Shown here piece by piece: positions 10,909 to 23,181 of a stretch of 64,000 nt of DNA. Made by a program: the position numbers and the translations under genes. The notes under the pieces are model-generated. The model saw only the letters and a list, made by a program, of their open reading frames with translations, was not told the origin of the DNA and ran no database searches. This DNA comes from Methanobacteriota archaeon (lineage in GTDB: Archaea; Thermoplasmatota; Thermoplasmata; SG8-5; DAIRED01). Location: positions 64,001 to 128,000 of the forward strand of contig JAZDNO010000006.1 of the NCBI GenBank assembly GCA_043799545.1, written 5' to 3'. Position 1 is the stretch's first letter; the number at the start of each line of letters is the position of its first letter.

Positions 10909-10970
10909 GCGGCACCAGGGGGATGAGACAGTCGCCGATTAAGAGCTTTGCGGAGGAAGCCTGCCAAATC

Positions 10971-11060: not shown

Positions 11061-12782
11061 ATGAAGCCCAAGGTAGCGGTGTTCGACTTCGCAAGCTGCG
11101 AAGGCTGCGAACTGCAGATCGCGAATCTCGAGGAGCAGGTAATCGACCTAGTCGGCGCGGTCGACATAGTCTCCTTCAGGGAGGTCATGAAGGAGCACTC
11201 GGACGATTACGACATCGCGTTCATTGAGGGCTCGATAAACCGACCTCTGGACGAGGAGCGGTTGAAGAAGATTCGGTCTCGCGCGAAGGTCCTCATCGCC
11301 ATGGGCGACTGCGCCTGCACGGGCTGTGTCAACAAGCTGAGGAACCAGTGGACGGTCGAGGAGGTCAAGAAAGAGGTGTATCCAGACGCGGCGGCGCAGA
11401 TGAAGGGCAACGAGCTCTTCGACATCTTTCCGACGAAGGCCATCGACGAAGTCGTGAAGGTGGATTTCTACATCCGCGGCTGCCCGATTCGGAAGGAGCA
11501 GTTCATCTATTACGTCAACAGGTTCGCGACCATGCCCCCGAGGAAGAACATGAACCTGCGCTTCAAGATCACCGAAAGGGAGATGGAGTCCGACCCCCGC
11601 TCGGTAATCCACTACGACCCGCAGAAGTGCATTCTTTGTAGGCACTGCCAGATAATATGCAACGACGTTCTTGACGTGCACGCCATCGGCATATCGGAGA
11701 AGGGGAACGAATCCATCATCTCCACGCCTTTTGAGAAAGGGCTGGAGGCCAACAACTGCATCAAGTGCGGCCAATGCCTCGTCAATTGCCCGGTCGGAGC
11801 GTTTTCGGAGAGCGCGGGAGTCGAAAAGGCCAAGGCGCTCATCGAGGACCCGAAGAATTACGTCATCCTGGTCATAGACCCGATTGCGATGGCCTCGGCA
11901 ATGGAGGGGATGATGACGTCGGAGACGCAGCTGGGGCCGGTGATTAGGAGGACGATATCGGCGTTCAGGAAGCTCGGCGTCAAGAGGGTGCTCGATTTCA
12001 CAAACTTCACGTACCTCTCAATCGCGGCGCAGGGCGAGCACATCAGGAACCACCACGAGATGAGCTTCGCATCATGGTGTCCGAGCGCCAGTATTTTCGT
12101 GAAGAAGTTCTATCCGCAGTTCAAGAAGTACCTGCACCCAGAATTCGAACCAGTTAACATCATGGCAGACCAGCTGAGGGCCAAGTACGGCAAGAAGAAT
12201 CTGAAGATAGTGCTTGTGAGCCCATGCATCGTGCACAAGGGCAACGAAAGCATCGACGCAGTGCTGACCGCCAGGGAGCTGCCGAGGCTCCTGAAATCAT
12301 GCGAGCTCGACATCGATTTCTTCCCTGCCGAAGGGGTGGACTTCGACACCGAGTGCTCCATGACGACGACGTTCCTCAGCGGGGCCAGGAACGACCACAC
12401 TTACTCCGTGCAGATGCTTGAAGCTGCGTACTATGGCAAATTCAAGAACCTCGATTCGGCGCTCGACATCAAGACCATCGGCGACTACGCCCACGAACTG
12501 ACCTTCGACAGCGAGGAGGGCTTCTTCAACGCCCTCGTCATCGAAGACATAGCAAAGACCAGCAAGTACCTCGAGAAGGACATAAGGAAGTACAACATCG
12601 TCGAGCTTTACCCGTGCTACTGGGGGTGCGTCACCGGCGGCGGGCAGACGCTGACGACTTCGTTGGCTGTGCTGGAGCACAGGATGGCTTTGCTGAAGGA
12701 GTACAAGGGAACGATAAAAGACCATGGCAAATTCATAGCCCAGATGATTGCCGGGTACGAACAGTGCAAGAGGGGTGAGTAA
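11061..12782 (+). CDS. Hybrid hydrogenase subunit: [NiFe] small-subunit N-domain + 2x[4Fe-4S] + [FeFe] H-cluster-like domain
   Basis: SCEGC/EGS/GDCAC/RGCP (group 3 small subunit), CILCRHC..C and CIKCGQC..NCP ferredoxin, then ASWCP, SPCIVHK and ELYPCYWGCVTGGGQ (H-cluster P1-P3-like). Confidence 0.88.
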   Translation: MKPKVAVFDFASCEGCELQIANLEEQVIDLVGAVDIVSFREVMKEHSDDYDIAFIEGSINRPLDEERLKKIRSRAKVLIAMGDCACTGCVNKLRNQWTVEEVKKEVYPDAAAQMKGNELFDIFPTKAIDEVVKVDFYIRGCPIRKEQFIYYVNRFATMPPRKNMNLRFKITEREMESDPRSVIHYDPQKCILCRHCQIICNDVLDVHAIGISEKGNESIISTPFEKGLEANNCIKCGQCLVNCPVGAFSESAGVEKAKALIEDPKNYVILVIDPIAMASAMEGMMTSETQLGPVIRRTISAFRKLGVKRVLDFTNFTYLSIAAQGEHIRNHHEMSFASWCPSASIFVKKFYPQFKKYLHPEFEPVNIMADQLRAKYGKKNLKIVLVSPCIVHKGNESIDAVLTARELPRLLKSCELDIDFFPAEGVDFDTECSMTTTFLSGARNDHTYSVQMLEAAYYGKFKNLDSALDIKTIGDYAHELTFDSEEGFFNALVIEDIAKTSKYLEKDIRKYNIVELYPCYWGCVTGGGQTLTTSLAVLEHRMALLKEYKGTIKDHGKFIAQMIAGYEQCKRGE

Positions 12783-13256
12783 ATGGACGTCAAGGACAGG
12801 TTCGTAATCGACACGGTTCTGGAGAAGTACAAAGGGGTCCGGGACCCCGCCCTCATAATACTCCAGAATATCCAGGCCGTCCTCGGATACGTCGGGAAGG
12901 ATTACCTGGAGTACGTCGCCGAGAAGACCGATTACTCCCTCACGGAATTGTACGGCATAGTCACATTCTATCCGTCGTTCAGGCTGGAGCCACCGGGGAA
13001 GCACACAATCAAAGTCTGCCAGGGGACGGCCTGCCACGTCCGGGGCGGGGAGAAGGTGCTGAAGGCGGTGGAGGAGCTGCTGGAAATCAAGCCCGGCGGG
13101 ACGACCAAAGACCGGCTTTTCTCGCTGGAATCGGTCCGGTGCCTCGGCTGCTGCGGCCTCTCGCCAGTCATAATGATAGACAACGAAACTTACGGGCGGG
13201 TAAAACCCGCCAAGCTCAATGAAATCCTGACCAAATACGGGGAGGCGGGCGAATGA
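12783..13256 (+). CDS. NuoE/HydC-like [2Fe-2S] subunit
   Basis: TFYPSF, VCQGTACHVRG and VRCLGCCGLSP. Confidence 0.93.
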   Translation: MDVKDRFVIDTVLEKYKGVRDPALIILQNIQAVLGYVGKDYLEYVAEKTDYSLTELYGIVTFYPSFRLEPPGKHTIKVCQGTACHVRGGEKVLKAVEELLEIKPGGTTKDRLFSLESVRCLGCCGLSPVIMIDNETYGRVKPAKLNEILTKYGEAGE

Positions 13257-16200
13257 AGATAAAGAGGAAGTTCGACCTGGAGGACCTGGCCAAGGCGGGT
13301 TTGGCCGACATGAACAGCGAGAACCCGCAGCTGATTTTCGGTCTGGCGACTTGCGGAATCGCGGCCGGCGGGATGCCGCTCAAGGAATACGCCGAGGAAT
13401 ACCTGTCGGTTAAAAACCCCAACGCCGAGATAGTCTCAGTGGGCTGCATCGGCATGTGCCACGCGGAACCGCTGGTGGACGTCAAGCTGCCGGGGAGGCC
13501 GAGGGTCACGTACCACAATATGACGGTTGAGAAGTTGAAGCGGGTCATGGACGAGCATCTTCTCGGGGGAAAGCCGGCCAAGGACCTGGCGCTGGCCCAG
13601 CTATCGGAGGAGATGTCCGAGTGCGTCGACGGCGTCCTGAAGTTCGACTCGAAATACGAGGGGATTCCGACCTATCGGGAGCTGCCCTTCTTCACCAAAC
13701 AGAAGAGGATTGTCCTGAGAAACTGCGGGATAGTCAATCCCGAAAGCCTGAAGGAGTACATTGCCAGGGGCGGCTACAAGAGCGCGTTCGCGATGCTTCA
13801 GGAGATGAAGCCCGAAGAGGTCATCGGCATCGTGAAGAAATCCGGCATAAGGGGCAGGGGCGGGGCGGGTTTCCCGACGGGGCTGAAGTGGGAGCTGTGC
13901 GCCAAAGCGCCTGGGGACGTGAAGTACATCATATGCAACGCGGACGAGGGCGACCCTGGCGCGTACATGGACCGGGCCGTGCTCGAAGGGGACCCGCACA
14001 GCGTCATCGAGGGGATGATAATCGGCGCCTACGCCATGGGCGCGTCAGAGGGCTTCGTCTACGTTAGGACGGAGTATCCGCTCGCCATCAAGCATTTGAA
14101 GCTGGCATTGGCCCAGGCTGAGAGCCACGGGCTCCTCGGCGAGAGAATTCTGGGAACGGACTTCAACTTCCAGATACACATCCGGGAAGGGGCGGGCGTG
14201 TTCGTCTGCGGCGAGGAGACGGCGCTCATGCATTCGATAGAAGGCAAGCGCGGGGAGCCGAGGCCCAGGCCGCCGTTCCCGGCGTCCAGCGGCCTGTGGG
14301 GCAAGCCCACCAACATCAACAATGTCGAGACGTGGGCCAACATCCCGCTCATCATGCAGAGGGGCGGGGCCTGGTTCGCGAAAATCGGGACCGAGAAGAG
14401 CACAGGGACGAAAGTATTCTCCCTTGTCGGCAAGATAAACCGGGCTGGCCTGGTGGAGGTGCCCGCGGGCATACCCCTGAAGGACATAGTGCACGAGATG
14501 GGGGGCGGTTGCCCCGACGGGAGGAAGGTCAAGGCCGTGCAGACGGGCGGGCCGTCCGGCGGTTGCATACCCGTCGAGCATCTGGACGTCACGGTGGATT
14601 ACGAGAACCTGAAGGCGCTGGGCTCCATCGTTGGGTCCGGTGGAATGGTCGTAATGGACGAGGACACGTGCATGGTCGACGTGGCTAGGTACTTCCTCTC
14701 TTTCACATCCGAAGAATCTTGCGGGAAATGCACTCCCTGCCGCGTCGGAACCAAGAGGATGCTGGAGCTGCTCCAGAAGATATGCCACGGCCAAGGCACT
14801 CCAGAGGATGTGCAGGTATTGGAGAACCTGTCCATCCAGGTGAGGGATGCGTCGCTTTGCGCGCTCGGCGGCACCGCGCCGAACCCGGTCCTCACCACTC
14901 TGAAATACTTCAGGCACGAGTACATGTCCCACGTCGAGGACGGCAAGTGCAAGGCGAGCGTGTGCGCGGCCATGTTCAAGTCGCCGTGCCAGAACACCTG
15001 CCCGGCCGGCACGAACGTCCCGGGATACATCCAGCTGATAAACGAGGGCAAGCTCGTTGAGGCCTACCAGGTGAACCTCGAGAACAACCCGTTCCCCTCG
15101 GTTTGCGGGCGCGTTTGCGAGCACCCATGCGAGGCAAGGTGCCAGCGCGGCCAGCTGGACGAGTCGATTGCCATCAGGGACCTTAAGAGGGTATGCTCCG
15201 ACGGCTTCGCCAAGTCCAAGAAGGCGCCGAAGGTTTCGAAGCTCAAACCCGTGGGGAAGAAGGTCGCCATAGTCGGCGGCGGGCCGTCGGGCATGTCGGC
15301 GGCGTACTTCCTCGCCCGCCTGGGCTACTTGCCGACCGTGTTCGAATCGGCCGAGAGGGCGGGGGGCTGGATGCGCTACGGGATACCGCGCTACAGGCTG
15401 CCGCACGAGGTGATCGACCGGGAGATAAAGAACATCGTCGACCTGGGCGTGGAATTGAAGACCGGCGTCGCCGTAGGCAGGGACGTGACTTTGCCCGAAC
15501 TCAAGAAGAAGTATGACGCGGTGTACCTAGCCATCGGGGCACAGCTCGATAAAAAGCTCGGGCTGGAGGGCGAGGACCTGCCCGGCGTGTTGCCAGGGCT
15601 CCAGGTGTTGAGGGATGTCAACGGCGGCAAGAAGGTCGACATCGGAAGGCACACGCTCATCATCGGTGGGGGCAACGTCGCTGTGGACGTGGCAAGAACC
15701 GCCGTGCGTGTGGGCGCCAAGGTGACGATTTGCTACAGGCGCGAGGAGCAGGACATGCCCGCCTACCGTGAAGAGGTAGAGCAGTGCAAGCAGGAGGGCG
15801 TCACTTACCACTTCCTCGTGGCGCCGGAGAAGCTAATCGTCCAGAAGGGAAGGGTCGTCGGAGCAGTGTTCAGGAAGAACTCGATTGGGGAGTTCAACAA
15901 GCACGGCCGCAGGGCGCCGGTGCCGACGGAAGAGACGCTGGAGGTCAAGGCCGACAGCATCATCGTGGCCATCGGGCAGGACGTCGACGAAGGCTTCGCA
16001 AAGGGATTCGACGGCGCGATTCTGGGCAAGGGCAAGCTCGTCGAGACCAAGAAAGGCCTGGCGACTAGCGACCCTAAGGTATTCGCCGGAGGGGACGCGG
16101 TCCTGGGGCCGGCGAGCGTCATCGAGGCCATAGGCCACGGAAAGCAGGCCGCGAGGAGCATCGACGCGATGCTCAGCGGGAAAGACAGGTTCCCCGAGCT

Positions 16201-16402
16201 GGAAGAGCACAACTTCGCGGGCTATTCCATGGCGGAGCCCAAGAACGAGCAGGAGATGCCGCGCCAGCATTCGGCGGAGGCCGAGGCTGCCAAGCGGATG
16301 TGCGGCTTCGACGAGGTGGTGATGTGCCTGGACGCGAAATGCGCCAAGAAAGAATCATCGAGATGTCTGAGGTGTGACCTCAGCGCAGTGGGGGATGATT
16401 AG
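13253..16402 (+). CDS. NuoF/HydB-like diaphorase fused to a GltD-like FAD/NAD(P)H domain
   Basis: GRGGAGFPTG, CNADEGDPG, CGEETAL and ESCGKCTPC, then CQNTCPAG, CGRVCEHPCE, GGGPSG, GGGNVAVD and AGGDAV. Confidence 0.93.
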   Translation: MKIKRKFDLEDLAKAGLADMNSENPQLIFGLATCGIAAGGMPLKEYAEEYLSVKNPNAEIVSVGCIGMCHAEPLVDVKLPGRPRVTYHNMTVEKLKRVMDEHLLGGKPAKDLALAQLSEEMSECVDGVLKFDSKYEGIPTYRELPFFTKQKRIVLRNCGIVNPESLKEYIARGGYKSAFAMLQEMKPEEVIGIVKKSGIRGRGGAGFPTGLKWELCAKAPGDVKYIICNADEGDPGAYMDRAVLEGDPHSVIEGMIIGAYAMGASEGFVYVRTEYPLAIKHLKLALAQAESHGLLGERILGTDFNFQIHIREGAGVFVCGEETALMHSIEGKRGEPRPRPPFPASSGLWGKPTNINNVETWANIPLIMQRGGAWFAKIGTEKSTGTKVFSLVGKINRAGLVEVPAGIPLKDIVHEMGGGCPDGRKVKAVQTGGPSGGCIPVEHLDVTVDYENLKALGSIVGSGGMVVMDEDTCMVDVARYFLSFTSEESCGKCTPCRVGTKRMLELLQKICHGQGTPEDVQVLENLSIQVRDASLCALGGTAPNPVLTTLKYFRHEYMSHVEDGKCKASVCAAMFKSPCQNTCPAGTNVPGYIQLINEGKLVEAYQVNLENNPFPSVCGRVCEHPCEARCQRGQLDESIAIRDLKRVCSDGFAKSKKAPKVSKLKPVGKKVAIVGGGPSGMSAAYFLARLGYLPTVFESAERAGGWMRYGIPRYRLPHEVIDREIKNIVDLGVELKTGVAVGRDVTLPELKKKYDAVYLAIGAQLDKKLGLEGEDLPGVLPGLQVLRDVNGGKKVDIGRHTLIIGGGNVAVDVARTAVRVGAKVTICYRREEQDMPAYREEVEQCKQEGVTYHFLVAPEKLIVQKGRVVGAVFRKNSIGEFNKHGRRAPVPTEETLEVKADSIIVAIGQDVDEGFAKGFDGAILGKGKLVETKKGLATSDPKVFAGGDAVLGPASVIEAIGHGKQAARSIDAMLSGKDRFPELEEHNFAGYSMAEPKNEQEMPRQHSAEAEAAKRMCGFDEVVMCLDAKCAKKESSRCLRCDLSAVGDD

Positions 16403-17083
16403 ATGCCTTCAGGCGTGATGATTGAGATTGTAGTTGACGGCAAGAAGATACATTGCCAGCCTAACCAGACGGTGCTGGAAGTCGCCAAGGCGAACAACAT
16501 CAGCATCCCGACGATGTGCCTGAACCCTCTGTTTCCGGGGCACAAGGTGGGTGCGTGCAGGATGTGCCTCGTGGAGATAACGGGGGGCGGGAGGCCTGGG
16601 CTGCAACCGAGCTGCACGCTGCCTGTCTCGTCGGGTCTGGCCATGTCCACATGCAGCGATGCAGTGTACAACGCCAGGCGGACTGTGGTGGAGCTGATGC
16701 TGACGGAGCACGTGCAGAAATGCCGCGACTGCCCCATCAGCGGTGACTGCAACTTCGCCAGGCTGTGCAGGGACTACGACGTCAACGGCGTCCCGGTCTG
16801 CGCGGAATGCCCCAACCAGAGGGAGGGCTGCCTGCTCAAGCGCGGAGTCCTCTGCGTCGGGCCGATAACGTACGCCAACTGCAACGCCTACTGCACCCGG
16901 CAGGGGTACAGATGCGAGGGTTGCCACTCCGTGATGGTGCACGACGACATACTGAAGTTCGGCATCAGGGCATTCAAGGACGCTGGCTTCAAGGCCAAGG
17001 ACATAGTGGAGGCAGCGAAAGTCTTCTCGTACGACAGCGTCAAAAGGGTCGAGAAGGCGCTGAAAGAGGAGGGGATGAAATGA
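16403..17083 (+). CDS. [2Fe-2S] + His-ligated [4Fe-4S] (NuoG/HydA N-type) domain fused to [NiFe] small-subunit C-terminal domain
   Basis: IPTMC, GACRMCLVE, QPSC and HVQKCRDC..GDC, then PVCAEC..GCL..GVLCVGPIT.ANCNAYC..G..CEGC. Confidence 0.85.
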   Translation: MPSGVMIEIVVDGKKIHCQPNQTVLEVAKANNISIPTMCLNPLFPGHKVGACRMCLVEITGGGRPGLQPSCTLPVSSGLAMSTCSDAVYNARRTVVELMLTEHVQKCRDCPISGDCNFARLCRDYDVNGVPVCAECPNQREGCLLKRGVLCVGPITYANCNAYCTRQGYRCEGCHSVMVHDDILKFGIRAFKDAGFKAKDIVEAAKVFSYDSVKRVEKALKEEGMK

Positions 17084-18375
17084 GCGAAAAGAACGTCCGC
17101 GTTGAGCATCTGACAAGGGTGGAGGGGCATGGCAACATCATCCTCAACTCCAAGAACGGCAAGTTGGAGAAGGTGGTCTGGGAGGTCTCGGAGGCTCCGA
17201 GGCTTTTCGAGGCCTTCGTGAGGGGGAAGCCCTATAGCCAGCTCGCGCAAATCACATCGAGGATATGCGGGATATGCTCCATCGGTCACACGATGGCATC
17301 TCTGAAGGCGACGGAGGCGGCGATGGGGATTGAAATATCCGAGCAGAGCGAGAAGCTCAGGCGGCTCGCGATGCACGGGGAGAACCTCCAGAGCCACGTT
17401 CTTCACGTGGGATACCTCGTCGCTCCAGACCTGTTCGGCGTGGGCAGCGTCGTTCCGCTAGTCGGAACCCACACCGACACCGTCCTGGCGATAATCAAAC
17501 TGCACAAGACGGCGAACGAGTTCTCGGACATGATATGCGGCCGGACGACGCACCCGACCAACCTGGTTCCAGGCGGGCTGTGGAAAACGCCCTCGCCACT
17601 GAAGCTTAGGAGCATGAGGCAGAAGCTCCTGGAGATGGTGCCTACGGCGAATGCTGTCGCCGAGGTGGTGCTGGCAAATGCGGGAGCCCTGCCGAATTTC
17701 ACGAGGGAGACGGAATTCATCGGCTTGGTGTCCAAGGACGAGTACGCGCTCTACGACGGCGACGTCGGCTCGACGGACGGCGGAACCTTCCCCGTGTCGT
17801 CGTACAGGACGATAGTCAACGAGTTCGTAGTACCCCAGTCCACCGCGAAGTACACGAAGCACAAGCGCGACTCTTTCATGGTCGGAGCCCTGGCCAGGTA
17901 CAACCTCAACTCCAAGAAGTTGTCTCCGATGGCGAAGGATTGGGCGGACAGGTTCGGCCTCAAACCGGTATGCCACAACCCGTTCATGAACAACGTGGCC
18001 CAGCTGGTCGAGGTGTTCAATTCCGTCGAGGATTCGATCGCGATAATCGACAGCCTGCTCGGCAAGTACGCCGACGAGCCCAGGCCAAAGATTAAACCGA
18101 AGGCCGGGAGCGGCGTTGGGGCGGTGGAGGTTCCGCGCGGTATACTCTTCCACGACTACACGTACGATGCCAACGGCCTGTGCACCAAGGCGAACTGCGT
18201 CATACCGACGAACCAGAACCACAACAACATCCAAAAGGACATGGAGGCGTTCGCGCCCACGCTCCTCGACAGGCCGGAAAAGGAGATCGAGCTAAACCTC
18301 GAGATGCTCGTGCGCGCCTACGACCCGTGCATCTCCTGCTCGACGCATTATTTAAAGGTCAAATTCGTGCGTTGA
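17080..18375 (+). CDS. [NiFe]-hydrogenase large subunit, group 3b-like (copy 1, hybrid operon)
   Basis: RVEGHG, L1 RICGICSIGH, EVPRG and L2 DPCISCSTH plus C-terminal extension. Confidence 0.95.
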   Translation: MSEKNVRVEHLTRVEGHGNIILNSKNGKLEKVVWEVSEAPRLFEAFVRGKPYSQLAQITSRICGICSIGHTMASLKATEAAMGIEISEQSEKLRRLAMHGENLQSHVLHVGYLVAPDLFGVGSVVPLVGTHTDTVLAIIKLHKTANEFSDMICGRTTHPTNLVPGGLWKTPSPLKLRSMRQKLLEMVPTANAVAEVVLANAGALPNFTRETEFIGLVSKDEYALYDGDVGSTDGGTFPVSSYRTIVNEFVVPQSTAKYTKHKRDSFMVGALARYNLNSKKLSPMAKDWADRFGLKPVCHNPFMNNVAQLVEVFNSVEDSIAIIDSLLGKYADEPRPKIKPKAGSGVGAVEVPRGILFHDYTYDANGLCTKANCVIPTNQNHNNIQKDMEAFAPTLLDRPEKEIELNLEMLVRAYDPCISCSTHYLKVKFVR

Positions 18376-18592: not shown

Positions 18593-20521
18593 TTGAAGAT
18601 AATACAAAAGGATGATTTCAAAGGGTTTGTGAACGCGCTGATAAAGGACAGCGGCATGGACGTTGAAGGCGTGAAGGCGAAGGGCCCGAAGTTCGCCTTC
18701 GGGCCGCTGGACAGCGCCGACGAGCTCAGGCTCGATTACGACGTCACGCTCCTGCCCCCGAAAAAGTATTTCCTGCCTCAGTACGAACAGTTGATGACCT
18801 TCGATTTGTCGAGCCCGTTCTCTGTCACCAGAGCCGAATACCCGCGCCGCAAGCTCATCATCGGCGTTCATCCCTACGATATTGTCGCGATTAGGCAGAT
18901 GGATAGCTATTTCCTCGACACGGATGTATCGGCCAGCTACCTCAGGAGGAAGAAGAACATACTCATCATCGGCTGCGATGTCATGCGCGTGCAGGACAAG
19001 GCCTTCTTCGGCTCGATGGGCACGGGGATGGTGCATTCTGGATACGACCTCTTCCTGACCGACCTGGGCGAGAAGGTGGCCATCGAGGTCGGAACTGAAG
19101 CGGGAAGCGACCTGCTCAGGTTCGCGACGAATGTGAGGGAGGCCACCCCGGTCGAGGTCCAGAAGGTCAAGGCGATGAGGGAGGCCACCGCGCTGAAGGC
19201 GACGCGCGGCCTGATGGTGAAGCCGAATGGCTGGCACGACCTGCTGGAGAAGGACTACGAGAGCGAGGTCTGGAAGAAGCAATCCGACAAATGCCTGGCT
19301 TGCGGCACGTGCACGCTGGTCTGCCCGACGTGCTTCTGCTACGACGTCAAGGACGACATACACCTGACTTTAAAGACAGGCGAACGGTCTAGGACGTGGG
19401 ACGGTTGCTTGCTCCGCCGGTTCACCGAGATAGGGTCCGGGGAGATATTCAGGGACGACATCCTCGACAGGTACAGGCACAGGATTCACAGGAAGGGTCG
19501 GTACCTCCCCGACCGATTGGGGTTCGTAGCCTGCGTGGGATGCGGTCGCTGCTCGAGCCAGTGCGTCCCGGACATTGCAGACCCGGTCAACCTAATTAAC
19601 ATGCTGTTCGAGGCGTCGCCGCACCTGGTAACCGATTCGCTTTCCGACCCGCACACCGTGAAGACAGACTTCACGAATCTCCCCGAGGGCGACACGGCCA
19701 AGATGCTCCACATGCCTGTGCCGGCAACCATCAATAGGGTTGAGAAGCTCACGGCGAAGGAGACTCTGTTCGAGATATCTCTCGACGACGGGAAGGCGCT
19801 CGGTCACGTGCCCGGCCAGTTCGTCGAGGTCTCAATCGCCGGCATGGGAGAATCCCCGATATCCGTTTCGTCAGCGCCGGGAACCAAGACCTTCGAGCTG
19901 GTAGTCAGGAAGGTCGGAGACGTCACGAGCAAGCTCCACACCATGAAGGCGGGAGATAAAATAGGAATCCGCGGGCCGTTCGGAAAGGGCTTCGACACCG
20001 AGGGTTTGAAGGGGAAGAACCTGCTCTTCATCGGGGCTGGCCTGGGCATGGTCCCGATGCGCTCCTTCATCAACCACGTGCTCAACAACCGCAAGGACTA
20101 CGGCGAGGTGACGATACTCTATGGATGCAAGGAACCGTGCGAGATGCTCTTCGCCAAGGAAATAGGGTCATGGGGGAAGCGCGATGACATACAGCACAAG
20201 AGGGCTGTCGACAAGTGCCCCGAAGGAGCGTGCTGGGACGGCGAGATAGGCGTCATAACGACGTTGCTGCCGAAGGTCAAATTCGATCCCAAGACGACGG
20301 TCGCCATCGTCGTCGGACCTCCGATCGTCTACAAATTCGTGAACAGGGACCTGCTCAAGCTCGGTGTGCCTGAGGAGAACATCGTCGTCTCCCTCGAAAG
20401 GCGCATGAAGTGCGGCGTCGGCAAGTGCGGGCACTGCCAGATGAACGGCATCTACGTATGCAAGGAAGGGCCAGTGTTCAATCTAAAGGACCTTAAGGGC
20501 GTGCAGGAGGCGTTCGAATGA
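18593..20521 (+). CDS. Group 3b (sulfhydrogenase-type) beta+gamma fusion: [4Fe-4S] subunit fused to FAD/NAD(P) subunit
   Basis: TTG start after GGAGGTG; CLACGTCTLVCPTCFC and CVGCGRC, then PGQF, GPFGKGF, GAGLG and ERRMKCGVGKCGHC. Confidence 0.92.
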   Translation: MKIIQKDDFKGFVNALIKDSGMDVEGVKAKGPKFAFGPLDSADELRLDYDVTLLPPKKYFLPQYEQLMTFDLSSPFSVTRAEYPRRKLIIGVHPYDIVAIRQMDSYFLDTDVSASYLRRKKNILIIGCDVMRVQDKAFFGSMGTGMVHSGYDLFLTDLGEKVAIEVGTEAGSDLLRFATNVREATPVEVQKVKAMREATALKATRGLMVKPNGWHDLLEKDYESEVWKKQSDKCLACGTCTLVCPTCFCYDVKDDIHLTLKTGERSRTWDGCLLRRFTEIGSGEIFRDDILDRYRHRIHRKGRYLPDRLGFVACVGCGRCSSQCVPDIADPVNLINMLFEASPHLVTDSLSDPHTVKTDFTNLPEGDTAKMLHMPVPATINRVEKLTAKETLFEISLDDGKALGHVPGQFVEVSIAGMGESPISVSSAPGTKTFELVVRKVGDVTSKLHTMKAGDKIGIRGPFGKGFDTEGLKGKNLLFIGAGLGMVPMRSFINHVLNNRKDYGEVTILYGCKEPCEMLFAKEIGSWGKRDDIQHKRAVDKCPEGACWDGEIGVITTLLPKVKFDPKTTVAIVVGPPIVYKFVNRDLLKLGVPEENIVVSLERRMKCGVGKCGHCQMNGIYVCKEGPVFNLKDLKGVQEAFE

Positions 20522-21294
20522 CCAAACCGCGAGTTGCGTTCTTCGACTTCTCGAGCTGCGAGGGCTGCCAGCTCCAGGTCGTCAACCTGGAGGAGGCCAT
20601 ACTGGATGTCGTCGGGCTCGTCGACATAGTCGAATTCAGGGAGGCCATGAAAGAATCCTCGACAGAATACGACATTGCAATTATCGAGGGGTCCATCGCA
20701 CGGCCGATGGACGTCGAGAGGATAAAGAAGATTAGGGAGAGGGCAAAGGTGCTAATCGCACTCGGGGCATGCGCCCACCTCGGCGGAGTACAGAGGATGG
20801 GCAACAAATGGACCGCTGAGGAGAACAAGGCAGAAGTCTATGCGAGACACCCCGGCTCCGAGGTGACAAAGGGCGATGCCAACCCCTATTTCGACCAGCC
20901 CAGGCACAGGGCCGTGGACGAGATTGTCAAAGTGGACTACACGATTCCGGGATGCCCCATAGACTCGAACGAGTTTGCGAAGGTTCTGATTGCTCTCCTG
21001 ACGGGCAAGAAGCCGCCTATTCCAGACTACCCAGTTTGCGTGGAGTGCAAGAAGAACGAGAACATCTGCCTCTTCACCATCGGGCAGTTCTGCATGGGGC
21101 CGATAGCTAGGGCCGGATGCGGCGCGATATGCCCGACCCACGGCGGCGAGTGCGAGGCGTGCCGAGGGTACGTGGACCACCCGCACACGCAAGCCCAGAC
21201 GGAAGTGCTAAAGAAGCACGGGCTGACGGTGGACGAAATCATGAACAGGAAGACAATGTACACTCACCGCTACGTCGAGGAGGGGAAACAATGA
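20518..21294 (+). CDS. Group 3b [NiFe]-hydrogenase small (delta) subunit, intact
   Basis: SSCEGC, EGS, GACA, PGCP, PVCVEC and CMGPIARAGCGAICP..CEAC. Confidence 0.94.
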   Translation: MTKPRVAFFDFSSCEGCQLQVVNLEEAILDVVGLVDIVEFREAMKESSTEYDIAIIEGSIARPMDVERIKKIRERAKVLIALGACAHLGGVQRMGNKWTAEENKAEVYARHPGSEVTKGDANPYFDQPRHRAVDEIVKVDYTIPGCPIDSNEFAKVLIALLTGKKPPIPDYPVCVECKKNENICLFTIGQFCMGPIARAGCGAICPTHGGECEACRGYVDHPHTQAQTEVLKKHGLTVDEIMNRKTMYTHRYVEEGKQ

Positions 21295-22589
21295 GCAACG
21301 TCAACATCAACGTCGAGCACCTGACAAGGGTCGAGGGCCACGGCAACATTGTGCTGAACGCGAAGGACGGCAAAATCGAGAAGGTGCAGTGGCAGGTTTC
21401 CGAGGCCCCGCGCTTCTTCGAATCGTTCGTCAGGGGGAGGCCATACAACGAGCTCAGCCACATCACCTCTAGGATTTGCGGCATCTGCTCCATCGGGCAT
21501 TCGCTCGCCTCCCTAAAGGCCACAGAAGCCGCAATGGGCATCCATACTTCGGAGCAGACCGAGATTCTCAGGCGGCTCGCGATACACGCGGAGAACATTC
21601 AGAGCCACGTTCTTCATGTGGGCTACCTGGTCGCTCCCGACTTGCTGGGGGCGCCGAGTGTGATTCCTCTTGCGGGCACGCACACTGGCGCAGTTCTGAA
21701 AATCGTCGGGTTGCACCGCTTGGCTAACGAGTACTCCAACATGATTTGCGGAAGGACAGTCCACCCGATCAGCCTCATCCCGGGCGGCTTCAGTCACATC
21801 CCTTCCGAGAAGCAGCTTAAGGGACTGAGGAAGAAGATTGCAGATGCGGTTCCTGATGTCGTCGCAGTCGCGGAGATAGTTCTGGCAAACGCGCACAAGC
21901 TACCGAACTTCTCTCGCGAAACGGAGTTCATAGCCCTCACGGCAGACGACGAATATGCCATCTACGACGGGGACATGGGCTCGACGGACGGCGGTCGCTG
22001 GCCGGTCGACAAATACCTTGAAATTACCAACGAATTCGTGGTCCCGCATTCGACGGCAAAGTTCACTAGGCACAAGCGCGAATCGTACATGGTCGGGGCG
22101 CTCGCACGCTTCAACCTCAACTACGACAAGCTGACCCCGGGGGCAAAGGAATGGGCCGGGAAATTCGGCCTGAAGCCAGTCAACCACAACCCGTTCATGA
22201 ACAGCGTCGCGCAGCTCGTGGAAACCGTGCACAGCTTCGAGGACTCGATAGCGCAAATCGACAAACTCATCGGGATGGGAATCGACGTCAACGAGAGGCC
22301 GAAGTTCGCAGTCAAGGCCGGTCATGGCGTGGGTGCGGTGGACGTGCCGAGGGGAATCCTCTTCCATGATTACACATACAACGACAAGGGCATTTGCACT
22401 AAAGCCAACTGCATCATCCCCACCAACCAGAACCACAACAACATAAACCAGGACTTCAAAGCGTTCGCGCCGACGATAATCGACAAGCCAGAGAAGGAAA
22501 TCGAGCTTCTGATGGAAATGCTGGTTCGCGCGTACGACCCGTGCATCTCCTGCTCGACGCACTACCTTGACGTGAAATTCGTGCGTTGA
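21291..22589 (+). CDS. [NiFe]-hydrogenase large (alpha) subunit, group 3b (copy 2)
   Basis: RVEGHG, RICGICSIGH, DVPRG and DPCISCSTHYLDVKFVR. Confidence 0.95.
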   Translation: MSNVNINVEHLTRVEGHGNIVLNAKDGKIEKVQWQVSEAPRFFESFVRGRPYNELSHITSRICGICSIGHSLASLKATEAAMGIHTSEQTEILRRLAIHAENIQSHVLHVGYLVAPDLLGAPSVIPLAGTHTGAVLKIVGLHRLANEYSNMICGRTVHPISLIPGGFSHIPSEKQLKGLRKKIADAVPDVVAVAEIVLANAHKLPNFSRETEFIALTADDEYAIYDGDMGSTDGGRWPVDKYLEITNEFVVPHSTAKFTRHKRESYMVGALARFNLNYDKLTPGAKEWAGKFGLKPVNHNPFMNSVAQLVETVHSFEDSIAQIDKLIGMGIDVNERPKFAVKAGHGVGAVDVPRGILFHDYTYNDKGICTKANCIIPTNQNHNNINQDFKAFAPTIIDKPEKEIELLMEMLVRAYDPCISCSTHYLDVKFVR

Positions 22590-22710
22590 TTGGATGTATC
22601 GCATTTCGAGAAAGCCGAAGCAGGAACCCAGGAGCGTCGGCCAGGGCACTAATAAACGTCGACAGGTTAAGGAAAGCCCGGGATTGCGACAATCGGTCAT
22701 CCGTGGCAAG

Positions 22711-23181
22711 ATGCCAAAAGCCGCCGTCATAGGAATAGGCAACCCCCTGATGTGCGACGACGGTGCGGGAATCGAGGTTCTGGACGCCCTTCGGAAGATG
22801 ACCTTGCCCGCAGGCGTGGACATACTGGACTGCGGGACCGGAGGGATGGCTCTCTTGCATGCGCTGGCGGATTATCGCGCCGTCGCAATCGTGGACGCGG
22901 TCGATTTCGGGGGCAGGCCTGGAGAAGTGAAATCTTTCTCCCCGGACGATGCCGTCTCCATAAAGGAGCTCAAGCGCCTGTCGCTCCACGAAGGGGACGC
23001 CTTCGAGACAATCGTTCTGGCAAGAAGGCTGGGCCAGTGCCCAGAGAATATAGTCATCTGCGCAATCCAGCCCAAGCGGATCGAGCCCAGGCACGGGATG
23101 ACCCGCGACGTGCGCTCGAAGCTGCCAGAACTCGCCTCTCAGGCGCGCCTGGCTCTCGAGCGGCTTTTAGCCAGCCGTTGA
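22711..23181 (+). CDS. Hydrogenase maturation endopeptidase
   Basis: GIGNPLMCDDGAG, DCGTGG, IVDAV and SLHE motifs. Confidence 0.92.
   Translation: MPKAAVIGIGNPLMCDDGAGIEVLDALRKMTLPAGVDILDCGTGGMALLHALADYRAVAIVDAVDFGGRPGEVKSFSPDDAVSIKELKRLSLHEGDAFETIVLARRLGQCPENIVICAIQPKRIEPRHGMTRDVRSKLPELASQARLALERLLASR

Follow-up and report, generated by a model that had tools for sequence, protein, structure and literature searches.

A probable group F/3f hybrid hydrogenase of a Thermoplasmatota archaeon divides its [NiFe] small subunit and its HydA crosswise between two proteins

The discovery of hybrid [NiFe]/[FeFe] hydrogenases is recent and striking, and how the two unrelated catalysts are held and wired together is known from models only. 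In the study that described the family (Greening et al., Cell 2024; PMC11216029), the group F [FeFe] hydrogenase consists of an N-terminal HyhS domain and a C-terminal HydA domain, and its gene is accompanied by contiguous hydC, hydB (with a glutamate-synthase-type domain), hydD (a 'NuoG-like conduit' with four Fe-S clusters) and hyhL. A five-subunit bifurcating complex was modelled there, and the coupling of both enzyme types in one complex was proposed; the archetype is Thermoplasmatota UBA147 sp002496385, and the enzymes, carried by 21 genomes in that study, were described as exclusive to archaea (PMC11216029). Here we analyse a 64,000-nucleotide stretch of DNA (the window) from an archaeal metagenome-assembled genome (MAG) of 2.06 Mb that is 94% complete and holds a full-length archaeal 16S gene. 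Five tightly packed genes on the + strand, at positions 11061-18375 of the window, very probably form the operon of a group F [FeFe]/group 3f [NiFe] hybrid hydrogenase of a Thermoplasmatota archaeon, in which the small subunit and HydA are split crosswise between two of the encoded proteins. The system is already known, and its domain map is modestly refined here.

The locus shares with the published hybrid its five genes and their order (hyhS(N)-hydA fusion, hydC, hydB, hydD, hyhL, with neighbours that abut or overlap by 4 bases), the HyhS-HydA fusion, a GltD-like module in HydB, a HydD with four clusters and the absence of HydEFG. A single chain holds an N-terminal group 3 small-subunit domain and a C-terminal H-cluster domain with conserved cysteine ligands, and the genes for HydC, HydB, HydD and HyhL are contiguous. 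The fusion is close to the published archetype, being 78% identical over residues 2-573 to that of Methanomassiliicoccales archaeon UBA147, and is 89% identical to that of Thermoplasmatota CTOTU11644. The nearest named relatives of the whole locus are Thermoplasmatota and Methanomassiliicoccales MAGs.

The fusion gene (11061-12782, + strand) encodes 573 amino acids and starts at 11061, not at 10923, as the family alignment opens at MKPKVA. Its Pfam domains are Oxidored_q6 (residues 13-152), a 2x[4Fe-4S] ferredoxin domain of the Fer4 type (189-247) and Fe_hyd_lg_C (278-527). The first part, residues 1-156 (11061-11528), is the N-terminal half of a [NiFe] small subunit and carries the proximal [4Fe-4S] ligands C13, C16, C84 and C141, which are kept in 74 to 85 of the 85 rows of an alignment made up of the window fusion and 84 relatives at 90% clustering. 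Residues 2-149 are 58% identical (E 2e-55) to residues 3-153 of the intact delta small subunit encoded on the same strand at 20518-21294 by a neighbouring group 3b-type hydrogenase, which served as comparator, and residues 3-156 align to residues 3-150 of the delta subunit of Pyrococcus furiosus sulfhydrogenase (SHI). When the fusion was aligned against the window delta, the C-terminal half of the latter found no match anywhere in it.

The remainder of the fusion is HydA-like. A HydA-type 2x[4Fe-4S] F-cluster domain (residues 180-250; 11598-11810), with eight cysteines that are invariant in all 85 rows, is followed by the H-cluster domain (residues 270-535; 11868-12665), whose cluster ligands C340, C389, C519 and C523 are present in the window fusion and retained in 81 or 82 of the rows. 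The alignment to Thermoanaerobacter kivui HydA1 runs unbroken from the one domain into the other: residues 164-542 align in one piece to HydA1 (8a6t_A) 120-519 with an E-value of 1.7e-42, and residues 182-530 align to Clostridium pasteurianum CpI 139-510. Since these alignments begin at HydA1 120 and CpI 139, the fusion lacks the HydA front end. All three comparisons, to delta, HydA1 and CpI, agree with what an earlier note on this DNA had read from it, namely a small-subunit N-half without its C-half, joined to a 2x[4Fe-4S] domain and an H-domain that are missing their front end.

Two further points concern the N-half. A cysteine five residues past the third proximal ligand, Cys89 in the motif GDCACTGC (fusion residues 84-89; window 11310-11327), occurs in 56/85 rows and in 1/43 unsplit delta subunits. 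We make no claim that Cys86 and Cys89 are extra cluster ligands, although this was considered: many unsplit deltas have Cys86 too, and Cys89 varies. A recent conversion of the N-half by the neighbouring delta gene, or the reverse, was rejected, as 58% identity is typical of any pair of split and unsplit N-halves (mean 61%).

HydD (16403-17083, + strand; 226 amino acids) carries both missing pieces, with all the Cys and His motifs quoted for it in the earlier note. Pfam recognises Fer2_4 (residues 6-83) and NADH-G_4Fe-4S_3 (92-129). Its N-half (residues 1-128; 16403-16786) is a front end of the HydA/NuoG type, with the motifs C39-x12-C52-x2-C55-x15-C71 for a [2Fe-2S] cluster and H103-x3-C107-x2-C110-x5-C116 for a His-ligated [4Fe-4S] cluster. 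The best solved matches of this half are the HydA N-termini of Acetobacterium woodii and Acetomicrobium mobile; residues 6-139 align to T. kivui HydA1 (8a6t_A) 3-131 and residues 8-127 to CpI 3-118. The C-half (residues 129-226; 16787-17083) is a small-subunit C-domain with eight cysteines for two [4Fe-4S] clusters, medial and distal. Residues 130-219 align to the P. furiosus sulfhydrogenase delta (9e1j_A) 160-250 with an E-value of 3.9e-13, and residues 110-215 to the window delta 146-255 with an E-value of 4e-11. The cysteine pattern, C133-x2-C-x6-C-x7-C-x8-C-x3-C-x6-C-x2-C174, has the same spacing as that of delta (Cx2Cx6Cx7Cx8Cx3Cx6Cx2C), and none of the eight cysteines varies across 21 HydD sequences and delta. 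For the HydD monomer, AlphaFold2 gave a mean predicted local distance difference test score (pLDDT) of 68, falling below 50 over the Cys loops of the C-half.

By sequence comparison, it is thus shown that the small subunit and a long-form HydA have each been cut in an inter-domain linker, and that the four pieces have been rejoined crosswise. The window delta, matched by the fusion in its first half and by HydD in its second, represents the unsplit form, as had been proposed. Alignment to the delta subunits and to the T. kivui and C. pasteurianum enzymes places the cuts at approximately residues 150-160 of delta and 120-135 of HydA, both in inter-domain linkers. That the arrangement is an artefact, either an assembly or frameshift error or a HydD tail that is no more than a generic ferredoxin-like segment, is extremely improbable. 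The same reading frames and junctions recur in 28 independent assemblies of archaea and bacteria, and layout and breakpoints are common to the whole family. The tail aligns to small-subunit C-domains with their exact cysteine spacing, not with the CxxCxxCxxxCP pattern, and the E-values of the sequence matches for both proteins exclude chance. The finding for 11061-17083 is real, and it is already explained by the known hybrid family.

A division of this kind supports the view that a whole small subunit, or a whole long-form HydA, can form only as a heterodimer of the fusion and HydD. The two proteins were co-folded with family alignments as input. The pair reached an interaction score (ipSAE) of 0.82, compared with 0.01 for the best of three controls; the mark is reached by 58/80 solved complexes and 2/110 mismatched pairs, counts that are approximate since custom alignments were used. 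The runs share at least 93% of contacts, and the pLDDT of the partner is at least 87. In the model, the small-subunit N-half of the fusion (residues 83-95 and 136-147) packs against the HydD C-half (157-183), for example residue 139 with 175, while the HydA F-domain (186-203 and 240-255) meets the His-cluster domain of HydD (97-118), for example residues 188-191 with 103-104. From this we infer that both parental interfaces would be rebuilt in the heterodimer. The model also predicts a new contact, in which residues 405-415 of the H-domain touch residues 140-142 in the small-subunit C-half of HydD. Cys89 of the fusion falls within the predicted HydD interface.

The co-fold thus supports binding of the fusion to HydD without demonstrating it. 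The earlier note had described two reciprocal chimeras that need each other to assemble: the domain swap is confirmed and the Cys-rich end of HydD docks onto the small-subunit N-domain in the model, while the binding of the two proteins rests on that model. One consideration weighs against taking the score at face value, since the pass may reflect the likeness of the two chains to solved intact HydA proteins and small subunits. A small subunit divided between the two chimeras would provide a concrete structural reason for obligatory co-assembly, as well as a testable picture of the origin of the operon.

The domain map differs from the published scheme in the origin of the clusters. There, three [NiFe]-type [4Fe-4S] clusters are placed on the fusion (PMC11216029), whereas in our alignments the proximal cluster alone has a small-subunit origin. 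The two that come after it belong to the HydA F-domain, which joins the H-domain without interruption when aligned to HydA1; HydD holds the medial and distal ones. In the methods of that study the HydD cofactors were placed with MvhG (5ODC chain E) and A. mobile HydA (PMC11216029), and the split is therefore implicit there, though undiscussed. Our literature search did not find a later paper on the split small subunit. If our map is correct, two Fe-S clusters shift in the published scheme.

On this map the following electron path can be proposed. The fusion and HydD would form a domain-swapped heterodimer, and HyhL, judging from known families, would dock on the proximal-cluster domain, that is, on the small-subunit N-half of the fusion. 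Electrons of the NiFe site and of the H-cluster would share one Fe-S network leading to the HydA front end and on to the HydBC flavin module. Those from the NiFe site would pass through the medial and distal clusters of HydD, the F-clusters, or both, as in A. mobile (S1 to A3), and the His-cluster and [2Fe-2S] front end of HydD would connect to the flavin module, which may serve NAD(H) and a low-potential partner. With the two enzymes covalently linked to each other, their assembly would be obligatory.

A close solved relative is A. mobile NiFe-HydABCSL (NiFe-Bfu; PDB 7T2R, 7T30), which likewise combines a HydBC flavin core and a HydA-type Fe-S scaffold with a group 3 large subunit. As in the fusion, its small subunit has only the proximal-cluster domain in one chain (HydS, 179 amino acids). 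However, HydA of A. mobile is an intact single chain that lacks the H-cluster, and no C-half of the small subunit exists there at all, whereas in the window HydA is in two pieces and retains the H-cluster ligands, and the C-half of the small subunit persists on the fragment with the HydA front end. By sequence, the flavin core of the operon belongs to the Bfu family (PMC9304861), with a NuoF-like flavin mononucleotide (FMN) subunit and a NuoE-like [2Fe-2S] subunit; the single BfuA/HydA chain with clusters A1-A5 that typifies the family is here divided between the fusion and HydD.

HydC (12783-13256, + strand) is the NuoE-like, thioredoxin-like [2Fe-2S] protein (Pfam 2Fe-2S_thioredx, E 6e-47). 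HydB (13253-16402, + strand; 1049 amino acids), assigned from Pfam and solved-structure matches, is a NuoF-type FMN/NADH module fused to a GltD/NfnA-like flavin adenine dinucleotide (FAD) module and is closest to A. mobile NiFe-HydABCSL HydB and to NfnB. Residues 35-577 match A. mobile NiFe-HydB (7t2r_B, E 2e-214), and the GltD-like part, residues 577-977, matches NfnA (9n5u_A) 105-503. This C-terminal module is most similar to the one inside NfnA of the Nfn-Bfu transhydrogenase and to those inside some formate dehydrogenase alpha subunits. Its presence in NfnA, formate dehydrogenase alpha and HydB suggests that the module has moved between BfuA-type and BfuB-type subunits.

HyhL (17080-18375, + strand; 431 amino acids; Pfam NiFeSe_Hases) is a group 3 [NiFe] large subunit, with sulfhydrogenase alpha as its best solved match (E 3e-65). 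Group 3b sulfhydrogenase, represented by P. furiosus SHI, is the best solved match of both small-subunit halves as well. In that group, including the cluster at 18593-22589 of the window, the small subunit is unsplit, the beta and gamma partners are not HydBC, and there is no [FeFe] module; in the hybrid operon, by contrast, the proximal-cluster and eight-Cys domains reside on separate polypeptides.

A 'HydA' rebuilt in this way would be atypical, and two observations weigh against a fully working [FeFe] site. HydE, HydF and HydG were not found above curated cut-offs in the 94% complete genome, in which the fusion holds the sole Fe_hyd_lg_C domain. In addition, a tryptophan (W339; window 12075-12077) replaces the proton-transfer cysteine, giving SWC for SCC, in 85/85 rows, and is also invariant in a 25-sequence alignment. 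Given the lack of HydEFG and this substitution, the [FeFe] side may in the cell be weakly active, sensory, or an electron relay only.

We considered whether the architecture is as described but the H-domain is not an active hydrogenase in the cell, binding only its [4Fe-4S] cubane or serving as a sensor or structural relay, so that the complex would be an electron-bifurcating [NiFe] hydrogenase of the NiFe-Bfu type exemplified by A. mobile HydABCSL, its HydA being vestigial or regulatory. The A. mobile precedent, a HydA homologue without an H-cluster (PMC9304861) whose partner HydB is the closest to that of the window, fits this reading, as do the two observations above and the bacterial relatives described below, in which the module is joined to a histidine kinase and a receiver. 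Nevertheless, the four H-cluster cysteines, the GGG motif and the lysine after the second of these cysteines are conserved family-wide. Furthermore, two artificially matured group F fusions from SG8-5 evolved H2, one of them at 5% of the rate of the Chlamydomonas reinhardtii enzyme, and HydEFG are also missing from the majority of archaea whose [FeFe] hydrogenases are active (PMC11216029). On balance we regard an H-domain that is inactive in the cell as rather unlikely.

A scan of species-representative genomes returned 565 relatives of the fusion. Among the loci that extend as far as HydD, 26 show the order fusion, HydC, HydB (NuoF + GltD), HydD, HyhL and encode both halves of HydD without interruption in a single reading frame; these include relatives of the Methanomassiliicoccales UBA147 type as well as Hadarchaeota, Bathyarchaeota and Balneolales. 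In all loci the 3' part of hydA comes first in the inner block and the 5' part last, and the outer flanks are the 5' part of hyhS on one side and its 3' part followed by hyhL on the other. The one exception in order is a Thermoplasmata AUK050 locus (L041:3880-9285), which reads hydC, hydB, fusion, hydD, hyhL with both chimeras intact. The HydB of this locus has only 413 amino acids and lacks the GltD module, and its large subunit shares only 33% identity with the window HyhL.

Maximum-likelihood trees were built for each small-subunit half. In the N-half tree a single branch parts 40 split from 43 whole forms (Shimodaira-Hasegawa-like approximate likelihood ratio test, SH-aLRT, 98.5), and in the C-half tree a single branch parts 29 split from 43 whole forms (SH-aLRT 97.9), so that one state change suffices in each; the 43 unsplit deltas were chosen by similarity to the query and are mostly of the Thermoplasmatota 3b type, which makes this a limited test. 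Split and whole forms share 40% identity in the C-half but 61% in the N-half, whereas unsplit subunits conserve both halves to the same degree (77% and 73%). Judged from these sequences, the C-half has diverged more than the N-half after the split.

Because the outer flanks are hyhS-5' and hyhS-3'-hyhL and the inner block has the 3' part of hydA first and the 5' part last, we propose that one permuted block was inserted. Put in full, and only tentatively, our account is one of single origin: a circularly permuted block (hydA-3', hydC, hydB, hydA-5') would have entered the inter-domain linker of hyhS; the [NiFe] wire, with its proximal cluster on one chain and its medial and distal clusters on the other, would cross the [FeFe] wire; the published cluster assignment would be corrected accordingly; and the family would reach Balneolales, other bacteria and kinase-fused sensory forms. 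The chimeras could instead have arisen stepwise by separate fission and fusion events, for example from a HoxU/HoxY-like or A. mobile-like ancestor, with their reciprocity a by-product. Small subunits consisting of the N-half only exist in related enzymes (HydS of A. mobile, and HoxY with 189 amino acids), and the different order in L041 also suits separate events. However, a single state change accounts for each half-tree, no intermediates were seen among the 565 relatives or the HydD search matches, and the outer flanks in every locus are those that one insertion of a permuted hydA into hyhS would leave. We rate a stepwise origin as somewhat less likely than not, and give the account of a single insertion no higher weight.

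In an exhaustive HMMER search of 1.84 billion representatives, the full-length HydD architecture was found in only five 50%-identity clusters, while the front end alone matched thousands of proteins. The longer or odd matches P0098, P0112, P0224 and P0110 were rejected as formate-dehydrogenase or NuoG-type proteins with the front end only.

Although the enzymes were published as exclusively archaeal (PMC11216029), relatives are also present in bacterial MAGs. Complete hybrid operons with the same order and a split HydD occur in Balneolales/Cyclonatronaceae (L015, L016, L018, L020-L025, L029), Gemmatimonadales (L038), Deferribacterales UBA4806 (L037) and Gammaproteobacteria (L023). The carriers are independent MAGs, mostly from soda-lake sediments, and their taxonomy comes from MAG binning only. 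Two proteins, P0071 (869 amino acids, Planctomycetota) and P0087 (859 amino acids), have a response-regulator receiver and a histidine-kinase ATPase domain upstream of a module composed of the small-subunit N-half, the 2x[4Fe-4S] domain and an H-like domain, with the H-cluster cysteines intact; such a domain content hints that bacteria may use the module for sensing. Within the family as a whole, a type of about 570 amino acids (SWCPSA ... GGGQ) can be distinguished from one of about 500 (SWCK/L ... GGGN), and the H-domains of the two are only about 25% identical.

Downstream of hyhL, a 218-base gap separates the hybrid operon from the second, conventional hydrogenase cluster of the group 3b type (18593-22589). 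Its first gene after the gap encodes a beta/gamma fusion; the delta gene used as comparator and the alpha subunit gene (21291-22589) follow. HyhL is 71% identical to this adjacent alpha subunit, and both terminate in DPCISCSTHYL.VKFVR. A single gene for a maturation protease of the HycI type (22594-23181) lies downstream of both large subunit genes.

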